Below are positions 15,001 through 24,000 of a stretch of DNA of 24,000 bases, piece by piece. The stretch covers positions 520,648 to 544,647 of the forward strand of contig NZ_FOEQ01000002.1 of the NCBI RefSeq assembly GCF_900110655.1, read 5' to 3'. This DNA comes from Pseudomonas soli. Its GTDB lineage: Bacteria; Pseudomonadota; Gammaproteobacteria; Pseudomonadales; Pseudomonadaceae. A program made the position numbers. Positions within the stretch are counted from its first letter, which is position 1; the number at the start of each line of letters is the position of its first letter.

Positions 15001-18000
15001 CCACCCAGCTTCACCCAGGGCGCCAGCAGCAAGACGCCGGTACTCACCTGGATCAGGGCGATCAGGTGCGGCGGCGTGCCGGTCAGACGCTTGATGATCA
15101 GCGCCGCCACGGCATACAGAAACGCCGCACCCAGCGCCAAGGCGATGCCCTGCAGGTACTCGCCACCACTGGCCTGCCCCGCGCCATGAGCGCTGACGAT
15201 GGCCAGCATGCCGAGGAACGCCACGCTCAGCCAGGTGAGTTTGGCCAAGGTGATCTTCTCGCCCAGGAACAGCGCCGCCAGCCCCACCAGCATGAACGGC
15301 TGGACGTTGTACACCGCGGTGCCGATGGCGATCGATGCCCGCGAATAAGAGGCGAACAGCAGTACCCAGTTACCGACGATCGCCACCCCGCTGACCACCG
15401 CCAGCAGGAAAGTCGCACGGGTCAGCACGCCCGGTTTGAGGAGGCCCATGGCCGCGCAGATAAGCAGCAAGGTGCCTGCACCGAACACGCAACGCCAGAA
15501 CACCACCTCCAGCACCGGCTGCCCGGACACCAGCACGAACCAGCCGATGGTCCCGGAAATCAGCATGGCGGCGATCATTTCCAACGAACCACGGCGCAAC
15601 GAATTGTCCATCTCACACCTCCAGTCGACGATGGGCACAGTATGCGGAGGGTTGAGGCTGACCTTCCAGCGGATAACCAAGGCAGATCAGTAACTGCACC
15701 TTTACTATCAAGGCAAATTTGGAAAATCACCTAACGAGGTAGCCATGACCGATGACATTGACCAGTTGCTGATCAACGCCCTGATGGAGGACTCGCGCCG
15801 CTCGCTCAAGGCACTGGCGCAGATCAGCGGCCTGTCGGCGCCCAGCGTCAGCGAGCGCCTGCGCCGCCTGGAGGAGCGCGGCGTGCTGCGCGGCTACACG
15901 GTAGAGGTGGACCCGCGCTGTTTCGGCTATCAGTTGCAGGCCATCGTGCGCATCCGCCCGCTGCCGGGGCAGTTGCAGGAGGTGGAACGGCAGATCGTCG
16001 CCATCCCCGAGTTCACCGAGTGCGACAAGGTGACCGGCGAGGACTGCTTCATCGCCCGCCTGCATGTGCGCTCGATGGAACAGTTGGACACGCTGCTCGA
16101 CCGCCTGAATGTGCTGGCCGAGACCAATACCGCGATCATCAAGAAGACGCCGGTGAAGCGGCGGTTGCCGCCGATGGACTGAGAAGGTCCGGCAGTGCAG
16201 ACGTCAGCCGACGCATGTTTCAGCCGGAACACGCACCGAACGTGTCCAGAAGTTGATCGACAGCGACGTACTCAACGAAGTGACTTGATGAAACCAGCCT
16301 TCAGGCAAGAACAGCAGGTCGCCAGGCCTCAGTCGAACGGGCAGGAATTCCACATTCCGGGCTGTCGGGAAATCCTCCCAGTTCGGCTTGTCCGGATTGA
16401 AATCACATCCTTCCAGGCCGCCATCCGGTGAAGTCGCCCAACTGCCCAAGGCCTCGCGATGATGCGGTGCGGCCAGCAGCATCGATTTCTCACCCCACAC
16501 CTGGGCAAACAGATTGTCGCTGTCATCTCGGTGAAGTGGCGTCAGCGTGCCCTTCGGGCCCAGCCAGAACCTTGGCGCTATATACTGTGCCCGCTCGAAC
16601 AACTCGGGAAACCGGATCAGTTGAAGCCATTGCTGCGGTACCTGATTGTTTCCCATGTACACAGCGGGTTCGTCACCGGTCGGCCCACTCGCCTCTTCCA
16701 TCCCGGCGACGAAATCCACCACCCTGGTGGCCTTGAACTCACGCTCGGAAGAGAACGCATGGTCGGCGTAGTGCCCGTGCCGACTGATGCCCTGTACGTC
16801 GGCAAAATGCTCCAGGGCTTGCCCCATCGACATCTTCGCCAATGGCCAATCGTCGAGTGCCGAGCTAAGCACCAAGGGTTTGCCGGCTGCCCGGTAACGG
16901 GTTGTGAACTCGTGTACCGAAAGCTGTCGCGCGGTACGCCGCTCGATCCCGCCACGCATGTCCAGACGAGCCGATAATTGCTCGCTGAAGCGAGGGCGAG
17001 CCGGGTAGCGGCGGTCCATTTCCACCCGTTCCCCATCGCCGCCATGCAATGCTCGACTGACCAGGCGCGGAAGCAATGTCGCCAGCCCGAGGCGGCCGTC
17101 GATTTTCAGCTGCCCTTGGGCAAAGAGCGCTTCGATATCGGACTGCCCCTGCATGATTGCGAGAAACACTGACGTGTCCATGGCGATGGTCACATCTGCC
17201 TGTGAATGCATGCCCGCATGAACCTGGGTGCAAGCCGGCGCACGCACCCAGAAGTGTTGCTGCCCGGAAAACACGAACTGGAAGGTACCGGCAACCCCCA
17301 CTTCATTGGCTCGCGCAAACAATGACGACAGCGCGGATTGCACTAACATGTCGACCTCCGATCAAGTCGCTTCAGGCTACTTTGCGAAGACAGTTCCGTG
17401 CCCACGCGTCACACCCTCCATTTCGGAGCGTTCGGCCAGTGCGCCATCGAACGAGATCAACCTGTCCGTCGTGGCTTTCCAGTCGGCCAGACGGTGATAG
17501 GCATTGATGAACCAGCTGAGATTCTCGCAAAGGTTGCCGAACGCCGAGTTGATCTGCATGACGTCACCAAACTGGATGGCACCGGAAAAGAAGCGCGGAA
17601 CCGCCAGCAGGCTACTGAACACCAGCGAGAGCTGGCTGTAACTCTCGGTGAACAACGAAAGACGCATCTTCACGCGGATAGTGCGGCGCATGTTGGCCAG
17701 GCTGACATCGAGCTTTTCACTGATGCGGTCTTTTTCGCCATTGCGGCCTGACTGATCCCCCTGCTCGCAGGAGTGGTCCCGGAAACGGATGAGGAAATAT
17801 CGCAGATCCGCCTCGGAACGCTGTTGATTATTGCTCAAGGAGACCAGTTTGAAGCCGATTTTCTGGCTGATGAAGGTGCCCAGCAGCGCGTAGAAAATGG
17901 CAGCCCAGAACATGTAGGCGGGGATATTCAAGCCCCACAGTTGCGCACCGCCTGAAATACCGATCAACACCACGCTGAACGAGACCACGCTGGCCAGGGT

Positions 18001-21000: not shown

Positions 21001-24000
21001 GCAACCCCGACCTGCGCCGCCTGAGCCTTGGCCTGCGCCCAGGCCTGCCGGGCCTGGGGGTCGTGGCACAACACCCGCTCGACCATGACCTCCAGGCTGA
21101 GCACCTCCGGTAGCGCCCCATCCACGCAGGCCGCACCCAGGCCTGAGCCTTGGAGCACGGCGGCAGGCGCCACGGCGTCGGCGGTCGAGAACACGTCCAG
21201 TGCAGCGGCACAGGGCGCCCATATGCACACAAGCACCAGCAGGCAACGATTGAAAACTCCTGCACTCATGGCGTGACAGCTTCGTCCAGGTCCGACGACA
21301 CGCTCGCCACCCGCTGATCAAGCACCACCCGCCCCGCCTCGAGACGCACTACCCGATCTGCGGAGGCGATCGTCTCGGCACGGTGGGCAACAATGATTCG
21401 CGTCACATCGAGTGCACGCACCGCCGCATTGACACACTGCTCGCTGGCCACATCGAGATGACTGGTGGCCTCGTCGAGAATGAGAATGTCCGGCCGCCGG
21501 TACAGTGCCCTGGCCAGCAGCACACGTTGTTTCTGCCCGCCCGACAGCACCGTGCCCATGTCGCCCACCAGTGTGTTGTAGCCCATCGGCATGGCCGCGA
21601 TATCGGCATCGATGGCGGCCATGCGCGCGCATTCCATGGCCCATTCCAGGTCGGGGCTGGTTTCGAAGAACGTGATGTTGTCCGCGAGCGAGCCGGCGAA
21701 CAGGCAGTCGTCCTGCATCACCGTGCCGATCCGCCCGCGCCAGGACTCCAGATCCAGCTGGCGCAGTTCATGCCCTGCCATGCGTATCTGCCCGCTGGTA
21801 GGCGGCAATACCCCCAGCAGCACGTTCACCAGGGTACTTTTGCCACATCCGGAGGCCCCGGTGATGGCCACGGACTCTCCGGGAGCAATGCGCAGGTCGA
21901 TGCCATCGAGCACCAGCGGCTCATGCTCGGAGTAGCGGTAGCTGAGGTTGTGGACTTCGATGCTCATCCGCCCGGCTGGCCAGTTCACCGGCTGGGACGC
22001 ATCGCGCTGCTCCTCGGGCGGTTGCAGGACGATGTCAGCCAGACGCTCGCCCTGCAAACACAGCATATGCAAGTCGAACAGGTGGTCTACCAGGCTCGCC
22101 ACACGGCTGACGAACTGGCTCTTGTACGCCACGAACGCCATCAACACGCCAACGGTGAAGTGGTTGTCCATCACCAGCGCAGCGCCAAAGCCAATGGTGC
22201 AGAGGTTTTCCAGGCCGAAGATCAACGCATTGAGCTGGGTATAGAGCAACTGCAGTTTCTGCGTGCGCAACCCCGCGTTGATCTGCGCGACCAGCAGCCC
22301 CAGCCAGGTGGAACGCCTTTCGCCTTGCCGCTGGAACAGCTTGAGCGTGCGTATGCCGCGCAGGGTTTCCAGAAAGTGGCTCTGCTGGCGGGCCGCATGC
22401 ACGATCTGCTCCTCGCTGGCACGGCGCAGCGGGCCATACCACGCCCAGCGCACGCCGATATAGGCCACCATGGCCAGTACCGCGATCATCGCCAGCAGCG
22501 GGCTGTAGAGGAACATCAGGGCCAGGGTCGCGATGGTCATCAGGCCATCGAGAATCGCCGAGAAGAACGCGGCGGTCAGCGTATGCTGGATTTGATCGAC
22601 AGCCCCGAAGCGAGACACCACATCACCCAGGTGGCGTTTCTCGAAGTACTGGATCGGCAGGCGCAACAGGTGGCTGAAGACGTTCGCCCGCCATTGCACG
22701 CTCAGCAAGGTGCTCATGTGCATCATCACCCAGGCCCGCGTGGCGCTGACCAATTGCTGCATCAGCAGCAACAGGCCGAAGCCGATCATCAGCGTGCTCA
22801 GCAAGTCGCGGTCCTGGGTGACCAGCACATTGTCGAGGGTCCATTGCAACAGGAACGGGCTGACCAGCGAAAACACCTCCAGCGCCAGCGCCAACAGCAA
22901 CACCTGGACCAGGCCGCGGTACAGCCCGCTGACGCGGCCGAGCATTCTCGTCAGGCCGAGCCGAGGCTTGGCAGCCTGCGCTTCGAAGCCCGGCTCGGGC
23001 CAGACCTCCAACGCAACGCCGGTGAAACATTCGCTGGCCTGGGCCAGGCTCAGTTGCCGCACCCCCTGCGCGGGATCATGCAGGGTCAGGCGCTGCCCGT
23101 TGACAGCCTTGAGCACCACGAAATGGTTGAAGTTCCAGTGCAGCACACAGGGCAGCTTGAGCTTGTTCAGCTCGCTGAGCTCCAGCCTTACCGCTCGGGT
23201 GCCCAGGTCGAGGCGCTGCGCAGTCTGCATCAGCTGCCTAAGGGTGATGCCTTTGAGCGAAACACTGAACTGCCGGCGCAGCTCCATCAGCGTCGTATGG
23301 TGGCCGTGCAGGCCAGCGATCATGGCCAGGCAGGCGAGCCCGCACTCGGTGGCCTCGGTCTGCAGGATCAACGGCAGGCGGCGCCCCAGCGTCGGGGTGA
23401 TGGCGTCGATGTAGTTCATGCATGCATTCCTAGAGCTTGCCGGTCAGACTGTAGAGCGGTTCGAGTACCCACTCGTAGAGTCGCCGGGTCTCCTGCAGGA
23501 CATCCGCCTCGACCAGCATGCCGGCCTGCAAGGGCCGGGATTCACCGTAAGCGAGCACCGACTGCTGCTCGATCCCCACGCGGATGCGATAGATCTGTTC
23601 GCCGTTGCCACCCAGGCCCGGCACGGTCCCGACCACATTGGCAAGCTCGGCGGCCGAAAGCGTCGTTCTGGACACGGAAATCACCTGGCCATGGTGCTGG
23701 CCGAACTTTTGGTAGGGGTAGGCCTGGTAACGCAGCAACACGGCATCACCCGCCCGGATAAAGCCTATGGCCTTGCTGGGGGCATACAACTCGGCTTGCA
23801 GGTTGGCATCCGCCGGCACCAGGCTCATCAACGATCGCGAACTGTCCACGACCTGCCCCGGCTCGGCCAGGATGGAAGTGGCCACGCCTTCCTGCGGCGC
23901 CGTGATGACCAGTGAGCGCTTGGCTTCGCTCTCGATCAGCGCCTGCTGCACCGACGACAGGGAGCGGCCGATGCTGGCCAGCTGATTGCCGTGTAACGCG

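Follow-up and report, generated by a model that had tools for sequence, protein, structure and literature searches.

The class IIb microcins (siderophore-microcins) of E. coli and Klebsiella, H47 (mchABCDEF/I) and E492 (mceABCDGHIJ), are made from glycine-rich precursors of 80–100 residues, are exported by a peptidase-containing ATP-binding cassette (ABC) exporter (PCAT) with an HlyD-type adaptor, and are encoded beside a small transmembrane (TM) immunity gene; a pair of proteins, MchC/MceJ and MchD/MceI, attaches a siderophore group to the peptide. Colicin V (MccV; cvaA–cvaB–cvaC–cvi), of class IIa, follows a similar exporter–precursor–immunity logic, with leader cleavage by a C39-containing ABC protein, but has no maturation enzymes and uses the chromosomal TolC. 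Class IIb microcins are described as limited to Enterobacteriaceae and as carrying only enterobactin-derived groups (PMC11634061). MchC-linked type I secretion system (T1SS) islands outside Enterobacteriaceae were predicted by Dudkiewicz et al. 2012 (PMC3281104), who placed MchC in a microcin-maturation branch of the SelO family; their main text mentions neither Pseudomonas nor a transporter or oxygenase in the predicted islands. Recent surveys of class II microcins covered Pantoea, Erwinia, Xanthomonas, and Serratia. Here we consider a stretch of 24,000 nucleotides from Pseudomonas soli (contig NZ_FOEQ01000002.1, positions 520,648 to 544,647; hereafter the window), which probably holds most of an accessory island of putida-group Pseudomonas for a Gly-rich, type-I-secreted microcin of the H47/E492 design. 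Two conserved members of the island, an SbmA-like transporter and an oxygenase, are extras found in no described microcin system.

The part of the island inside the window lies on the minus strand between positions 16204 and 24000 and consists of eight co-oriented genes. An initial annotation, made from the sequence alone, had spoken of nine genes and of a complete locus. The eight genes that it listed are present at their coordinates, and Pfam searches bore out every domain call (Peptidase_C39, ABC_membrane, ABC_tran, HlyD, OEP, SbmA_BacA/ABC_membrane_2, Cupin_8, and SCP2); no ninth gene was found, and the locus is not complete. We compared the window with related loci and contigs from genomes and metagenomes (numbered L001–L123), among which L006–L011 encode proteins 96–100% identical to those of the window and extend past its end. 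They run on with the N-terminus of HlyD and with GerE, MchC-like, and HlyC-like genes, as the initial annotation had guessed in supposing that further genes lay upstream. These near-identical contigs add about 3.7 kb, bringing the island to about 11.3 kb in total, with about three quarters of it inside the window. The initial annotation was also right in linking the genes that trail the precursor (16204–18882) to the exporter core, with which they are syntenic in relatives, so that its own refuting condition, a complete lack of such synteny, does not hold, and in knowing of no characterized Pseudomonas counterpart: we found none in the literature searched, which excluded subscription journals.

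The island is mobile and moves horizontally. G+C content falls from about 0.65 to 0.50–0.54 across 17.5–19.5 kb. The right flank is the AsnC–EamA–GST block of the window, and the left flank varies among loci (a cytosine/purine permease gene in L012, glmS in L014, and an insertion sequence element in L004). Three gene orders were recognized. In type A, that of the window, the order is [HlyC←MchC←GerE] | HlyD–PCAT–outer-membrane factor (OMF)–(cassettes)–SbmA–JmjC; in type A′ it is MchC–HlyC–precursor ... HlyD–PCAT–OMF–SbmA–JmjC; and in type B, from P. antarctica and P. chlororaphis, it is GerE← | HlyD–PCAT–OMF–SbmA–MchC–HlyC–(precursor). The cassettes diverge faster than the machinery around them: between the window and L105, amino-acid identity is 84% in the cassette region and 98% in the export genes.

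Past HlyD in L006–L011 lies a divergent set of genes for a 67-residue GerE/LuxR-type helix-turn-helix (HTH) protein, a 573-residue protein, and a 153-residue HlyC-family protein, a set also seen in L004, L012, and L014. The 573-residue protein belongs to no family in Pfam or NCBIfam. In tblastn searches it matched plasmid genes annotated as "MchC protein" (36–41% identity, E ~1e-47) and one annotated as SelO-family, and the "MchC protein" genes adjoin HlyC-family, HlyD, and PCAT genes in Salmonella, Pantoea, Klebsiella, and Ralstonia. The 153-residue protein matches the Pfam HlyC model at 1e-14 and ApxC at 5e-8. Upon alignment it groups with MchD-type sequences (34% identity to a Salmonella plasmid copy, as against 23% to HlyC), and the Asp that is invariant in the W-x-I-D motif is conserved in it. 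No related locus with a long enough contig lacks the MchC-like and HlyC-like genes. A reading of the HlyC-like gene as part of an RTX-toxin locus was rejected on account of its MchC-like partner, the catalytic C39 domain of the exporter, and a precursor free of lysine.

Homologues of the MchC/MceJ and MchD/MceI pair are thus part of the locus, outside the window (in L006/L007 and others), and because of this pair the island belongs, as judged from its gene content, with class IIb (H47/E492); colicin V is the wrong analogue. Of the "colicin V / microcin H47 logic" invoked at first, the H47 half therefore holds, and the class IIa half does not. The likeness to H47 and E492 extends to the Gly-rich precursor, the PCAT with its adaptor, and the small TM gene beside the structural gene. 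Unlike those loci, the island adds its own TolC-like channel, an SbmA-like transporter, an SCP2-JmjC protein, and a stand-alone GerE HTH regulator, and it has a PvdS-type box in place of a Fur box. MchC-linked T1SS islands elsewhere (Vibrio cholerae GI-52, Cellvibrio, Xanthomonas, Ralstonia, Klebsiella, and Pantoea) carry MchC-like, HlyC-like, HlyD, and PCAT genes together with small Gly-rich open reading frames (ORFs), as here, but the SbmA-like gene, the SCP2-JmjC gene, and a dedicated OMF occur in none of those inspected outside Pseudomonas.

The export genes form the upstream half of the minus-strand run. The HlyD-family adaptor is represented by its C-terminal ~190 codons (23430–24000; Pfam HlyD_3, 6e-12), the gene continuing past the window end; in L006 it is complete and encodes 433 residues (TIGR01843 type_I_hlyD, 1.4e-36). 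Next comes the PCAT gene (21266–23419, 717 residues; Peptidase_C39 4.6e-37, ABC_membrane 2e-40, ABC_tran 1.5e-33). The C39 domain matches LahT150 (6MPZ) at 4.6e-23, as against only 5.8e-4 for the inactive C39-like domain of HlyB, and it retains the Cys (ECGLACL), His (NHFVVL), and Asp (HDPAQG) residues; judged by these residues, it is catalytically intact. As in class II microcin loci, the C39-bearing exporter has a membrane-fusion protein adjacent to it. In every related locus the gene for the dedicated TolC-family OMF (19857–21269, 470 residues; OEP 3.6e-48, TIGR01844 type_I_sec_TolC 6.8e-49) directly follows the PCAT gene, and in the window the two genes overlap by 4 nucleotides, which suggests that they are translationally coupled. 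At the end of its contig, after the cassette of precursor and ORF60, L014 carries a second, partial OMF copy (10759–11124; 92% identity over 122 residues), the product of a duplication or of an assembly join.

The microcin precursor (19477–19770, minus strand) is a protein of 97 residues with a GGGAG Shine–Dalgarno sequence ahead of its ATG. Its leader, MRDITAEELEMVAGA (15 residues, 19726–19770), is of the double-glycine type with a Gly-Ala end, and cleavage is predicted after Gly14-Ala15. The leader conforms to the consensus for double-glycine-type microcin leaders, being within the 15–19 residues of class II leaders that end in GG or GA, and it follows the same pattern as the leader of H47. 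The remaining 82 residues are Gly/Ala-rich, lack Lys, and end in ...LWGSASTGA. The initial annotation's core proposal, a precursor with such a leader beside an intact C39 exporter, an adaptor, and a TolC-family channel of its own in a Pseudomonas background, is supported by these features.

The precursor family comprises eight clusters at 90% identity. The leader is invariant or almost so in the eight members, its pattern is common to sister families, and the C-terminus is ...MWGSASTGA, with Ala as the last residue (Ser in one member). An exhaustive profile search with this family among 1.84 billion proteins returned only 41 representative clusters, which have in common the leader and a GP.GA...Y.G start of the core. 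At least five precursor families were found in the related loci. Their leaders follow MR.[LI][ST]..E[LIV]..[VI][SA]G[AG], SFFPQTP and SGIPWGASMGG are among the motifs that recur at their C-termini, and in most of them the last residue is Ser, but an SGSGS-type tail is lacking. Neither Pfam nor NCBIfam has a family for the window precursor or for the two small ORFs that follow it (ORF60 and ORF62), and Pfam gave no MccV match for the precursor. All three are real genes given their recurrence in relatives and ratios of nonsynonymous to synonymous substitution (dN/dS) that indicate purifying selection: 0.11–0.20 for the precursor (at dS 0.7–0.9), 0.20–0.34 for ORF60, and 0.30 for ORF62. A hairpin with a 13-bp stem (19434–19462, minus strand), found in a scan for terminator-like structures, begins 15 nucleotides past the precursor stop codon and has a poor T-tract; it is probably an attenuator or a transcript stabilizer. 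An Rfam scan of the whole window gave no match.

The precursor is also 100% identical to proteins on several SRA-derived contigs and to "hypothetical protein WR25_08625" from the assembly of the nematode Diploscapter pachys. The nematode contig (LIAE01010084.1, 11.7 kb) carries the entire bacterial island with eukaryote-style merged gene calls, and the assembly is evidently contaminated by a Pseudomonas.

The two small ORFs, described alike at first as two-TM proteins, differ in their affiliations. ORF60 (19203–19385, minus strand, 60 residues, with GGAGG ahead of a GTG start) has two predicted TM segments and directly follows homologues of the window precursor in L001–L005, L014, and L105. 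The pairing of an 82-residue core with an adjoining two-TM ORF60 holds in most relatives, and ORF60 is likely to be the cognate immunity protein. ORF62 (18694–18882, minus strand; 62 residues, or 56 from the ATG at 18864) encodes a small membrane protein for which only one TM segment exceeds the threshold in the window copy, with two in its relatives. Its homologues (51–61% identity) adjoin a different precursor, MR[DN]LT[DE]KELLMVSGA...SGIPWGASMGG..., in L098/L099 and L103/L104. A search of the window for a remnant of that second family found none, the only match being to the shared leader. Because its homologues accompany a precursor family absent from the window, ORF62 probably belongs to a second microcin family, as an orphan immunity gene.

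Two further arrangements of these cassettes were seen. In P. putida (L001/L002, 10001–10750) an orphan precursor, an ORF60-like gene, and a 33-residue SbmA-like fragment lie between queC and a cation-efflux gene, with no exporter nearby and with a palindromic box (see below) retained 210 nucleotides upstream; the cassette here has decayed or is a cheater copy. In P. hunanensis (L005, 3000–7300) a module of precursor, ORF60, and broken SbmA-like gene faces one of OMF, ORF62-like gene, and intact SbmA-like gene, with JmjC fragments between, an arrangement that points to cassette recombination inside the island.

Next in the run is the gene for an inner-membrane transporter of the SbmA/BacA/YddA family (minus strand; 17377–18576 as first called, 17377–18489 and 370 residues from the conserved start). 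It has the transmembrane domain of the SbmA/BacA (SLiPT) family (ABC_membrane_2 1.8e-38, SbmA_BacA 6.4e-35) and, like SbmA and BacA, no nucleotide-binding domain (NBD); in the PDB it matches Rv1819c (1e-34) and SbmA (5e-20). It is separated from the following gene by 27 nucleotides. The clade to which it belongs comprises about 78 clusters (57–94% identity), nearly all of ~370 residues, and every cluster with a source name is from Pseudomonas. The next relatives (44% identity) have 578 residues and an NBD. Because the clade is nearer to the NBD-bearing Rv1819c and Pseudomonas YddA-like proteins (44%) than to SbmA, its loss of the NBD may have been independent. One of the 578-residue paralogues lies among dipeptide-binding and two-component genes, and for this reason the idea that the transporter is a paralogue of a siderophore-locus gene was rejected.

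About 30 loci of the NBD-less clade were sampled from genomes and metagenomes, using the transporter itself as the seed. In every one with enough flanking sequence, and in all three gene orders, the SbmA-like gene directly follows the T1SS OMF gene, and the linkage to the T1SS is still seen in L123, which at 57% identity represents the clade's deepest branch. Since this adjacency survives three gene orders and such divergence, the SbmA-like gene is a core component of the system. We also scanned a genome collection with patterns from an alignment of the clade, which matched ubiquitous NBD-bearing YddA-like proteins as well; of the 80 loci among the matches listed, only L018 was a member of the clade, and these loci served as a background of 1.38 Mb for the motif counts below. 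The transporter is known in other settings from the opposite side, SbmA being an entry route in target cells, whereas here the gene sits in a producer locus.

The last gene encodes an SCP2-JmjC (Cupin_8) fusion of 381 residues, a predicted Fe(II)/2-oxoglutarate oxygenase (16204–17349, minus strand; SCP2 1.3e-10, Cupin_8 3.7e-32). As in JmjC oxygenases of the FIH/JMJD5/TYW5 clade, an HxD...H iron triad (LHRDD...H(Q)V) and a lysine that binds 2-oxoglutarate are in place, aligned with the corresponding residues of JMJD5. The initial "FIH-like" label was correct as to the oxygenase domain, but by sequence JMJD5 (1e-19) is nearer than FIH (3e-14). The gene lies downstream of the SbmA-like gene in the window and in L004, L006–8, L011, L098/99, L103/4, L106–110, L113/4, and L123. 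It follows the transporter gene in most type A and A′ loci but does not share the constancy of its neighbor: of the trailing genes, first taken as one set, the SbmA-like gene is invariant, and several relatives have lost the JmjC gene, carry a frameshifted copy, or lack it. It is a frequent but dispensable accessory member of the island.

The island proteins form a clade of their own (60–99% identity, beside the SbmA-like gene in microcin T1SS loci), next to a large paralogous clade, 53–56% identical, that is widespread in Pseudomonas. A representative of the latter (377 residues, 55% identical; L100/L101, 1–9134) is divergent from a thioesterase gene and a gene for a 4123-residue nonribosomal peptide synthetase (NRPS) that best fits the PvdL-sized model PRK05691. 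According to Iyer et al. 2010 (PMC2938197), the variable portion of pyoverdine clusters includes SCP2-fused JmjC genes. On sequence grounds the island gene is a paralogue of this pyoverdine-cluster gene, with the same two-domain architecture as the pyoverdine-cluster proteins and an intact HxD...H/K site, but it belongs to a separate clade and is not beside a PvdL-type NRPS gene.

Two motifs bear on the regulation of the island. A lux-box-like palindrome, CCCTACA-GG-TGTAGGG, lies at 18972–18985, about 90 nucleotides upstream of ORF62, and is the only copy in the window (0.01 expected). In the form CCCTACA-N2-TGTAGGG, with one mismatch allowed, it occurs in one to three copies in 19 of 23 related loci (for example, L006 at 2688 and 8876; L004 at 3660 and 9788; L018 at 4556 and 13310; L102 at 4546; L123 at 1841), in each case ahead of either the mchC-like gene or a precursor/immunity cassette, and not at all in 1.38 Mb of unrelated loci. 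It is a candidate operator for the GerE/LuxR regulator. Meanwhile, the spacer between GerE and HlyD contains TAAAT-N16-CGT, pointing toward GerE, in 19 of 26 loci (17 matches in the 1.38-Mb background); in L006 the site is at 3029–3052, and this spacer lies outside the window. When 14 diverged spacers were aligned (mean identity 44%), invariance or near-invariance within the motif region was confined to the columns of TAAAT and TCGT; one further near-invariant column, C11 at the 5′ edge, has a base in only two or three of the 14 sequences. TAAAT-N16-CGT is the consensus of the iron-starvation (IS) box of PvdS-dependent promoters (PMC2235872). An IS box upstream of the regulator, together with the palindrome, suggests that the island is under iron-starvation control.

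A number of observations weigh against the class IIb reading or parts of it. The maturation genes lie outside the window, and their presence in this strain is assumed from the 96–100%-identical contigs. Neither the MchC-like protein nor a profile built from eight sequences had a meaningful match among PDB sequences of solved structures, so its relationship to SelO rests on PMC3281104 and the one plasmid annotation. ORF60 is missing from L012/L013, which retain the precursor, and this weakens the immunity assignment. The precursor begins 87 bp after the OMF gene and has no palindromic box of its own; transcription from the export operon may extend into it. A scan for Fur boxes in the window and related loci found none in the relevant spacers, the single good match (three mismatches) being in L102 at 13707, downstream of the island. 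The JmjC gene is absent from L012, L105, L111, and all type-B loci and so cannot be essential, and it has decayed in close relatives, being frameshifted in L009/L010 and fragmentary in L005. Finally, no IroB-like glycosyltransferase (MchA/MceC) or IroD-like esterase (MchS1/MceD) is encoded among the island genes of the window, L004, L006, L012, L018, L098, or L102, and the Ser-rich C-terminal decapeptide that serves as the attachment site in class IIb is not present, the window peptide ending in Ala. These last two findings also suit an unmodified class IIa locus similar to that for colicin V, in which the SbmA-like and JmjC genes, themselves absent from colicin V loci, would be mere add-ons or neighbors. 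The exporter, the leader, and the small TM ORFs are as compatible with class IIa as with class IIb, and sister precursors in L098 and L103 give sub-threshold matches to Pfam MccV (~3e-5). Nevertheless, MchC-like and MchD-like genes occur wherever related contigs reach far enough, and the SbmA-like gene, never seen elsewhere, stays next to the T1SS in all three gene orders and at identities as low as 57%; we consider the class IIa alternative very unlikely.

How, then, might the system work? In the class IIb reading, the MchC/MchD-type pair would, as we somewhat favor, modify the precursor in the cytoplasm, most likely at or near the conserved C-terminus. A single step would then remove the leader after Gly14-Ala15 and export the peptide. 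ORF60 would protect the producer, and ORF62, as an orphan immunity protein, would protect it against the sister microcin. Expression could be governed by a cascade, to which we give an even chance, in which a PvdS-type extracytoplasmic function sigma factor acting at the IS box turns on the GerE regulator, whose own targets are the palindromic boxes in front of mchCD and of the cassettes. The SbmA-like protein would work inward, as its family does, and the oxygenase would hydroxylate either the attached group or a feature shared by the peptides. Since the presence of the JmjC gene is independent of the precursor family, the target would be a shared one, and action on residues specific to a given precursor is disfavored.

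The role of the transporter can be assigned only tentatively. The reading that we prefer, with limited confidence, is that it supplies or recycles the prosthetic group or the modified peptide. Almost as likely is a generic self-protection role, itself rather unlikely, in which the transporter would pull the membrane-active microcin from the periplasm into the cytoplasm, where the JmjC protein would detoxify or mark it, so that both proteins would serve immunity and not biosynthesis. SbmA, BacA, and Rv1819c relatives are importers by family assignment, and BacA protects rhizobia from NCR peptides; the SbmA-like gene is conserved independently of the precursor family encoded, and in the window it stands behind an immunity-like gene and a regulated box. 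On the other hand, small cassette-specific immunity genes exist already, also as orphans, such as ORF62 in the window and the pair in L001, and no intact orphan SbmA-like gene was found away from T1SS/MchCD genes in the ~30 loci of the transporter-seeded sample. A specific and rather doubtful version of the supply role is a siderophore-microcin built on Pseudomonas chemistry, in which PvdS-type control, the SbmA-like transporter, the JmjC oxygenase, and the MchC/MchD-type steps would all serve a conjugate with Trojan-horse entry. The genus Pseudomonas is not known to make enterobactin. Hints of a siderophore moiety and of iron-dependent activity, all indirect, are the IS-box-like motif and the paralogy of the JmjC gene to one from pyoverdine clusters. 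In such a scheme the SbmA-like protein would import a periplasmically matured siderophore or fragment (pyoverdine-derived or other) into the cytoplasm, the SCP2-JmjC protein would tailor it, and, ahead of export by the PCAT, the MchC/MchD-type pair would join it to the C-terminus of the peptide; the toxin would then enter competitors through TonB-dependent siderophore receptors. It may also be asked whether the peptide is primarily a toxin at all. The precursor core is extremely Gly/Ala-rich, and microcin-type peptides of Acinetobacter are reported to self-assemble and promote biofilm (PMC13188072), so the product might instead be a self-assembling or signaling peptide, for example a biofilm matrix component, that leaves the cell through the same machinery. 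However, the cassettes of precursor and small TM gene are swapped and have diverged far more than the export genes, and orphan precursor/immunity pairs and orphan immunity genes occur. Because these are the usual signs of an arms race between toxin and immunity, we regard a product that is not primarily a toxin as very unlikely, on a par with the class IIa alternative.

Elsewhere in the window, a gene for a LysR regulator (4848–5849, minus strand) faces a plus-strand run of genes that extends to 12531: HMG-CoA-synthase-like (6312–7511), enoyl-CoA hydratase (7451–8299), asparagine synthase (8380–10323), FAD monooxygenase (10254–11444), and acyl-CoA dehydrogenase (11455–12531). The region from 4848 to 12531 may be a small-molecule biosynthetic cluster; G+C content dips to 0.53 at 5.5–6.5 kb. 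Positions 175–4725 encode a resistance–nodulation–division efflux transporter (AcrB family, 1034 residues) followed by a second OEP-family outer-membrane factor, which is unrelated to the microcin T1SS channel.

If our reading is correct, a lineage of Pseudomonas has retained the MchC/MchD pair of the class IIb microcins, with an SbmA-like transporter and a pyoverdine-type oxygenase taking the place of the glycosyltransferase and esterase. Such a lineage would make it possible to test what else the MchC/MchD ligation machinery can attach. It would also provide the first role for an SbmA-family protein on the side of the producer rather than that of the victim, and it would open up at least five new families of narrow-spectrum anti-Pseudomonas peptides together with their immunity genes.

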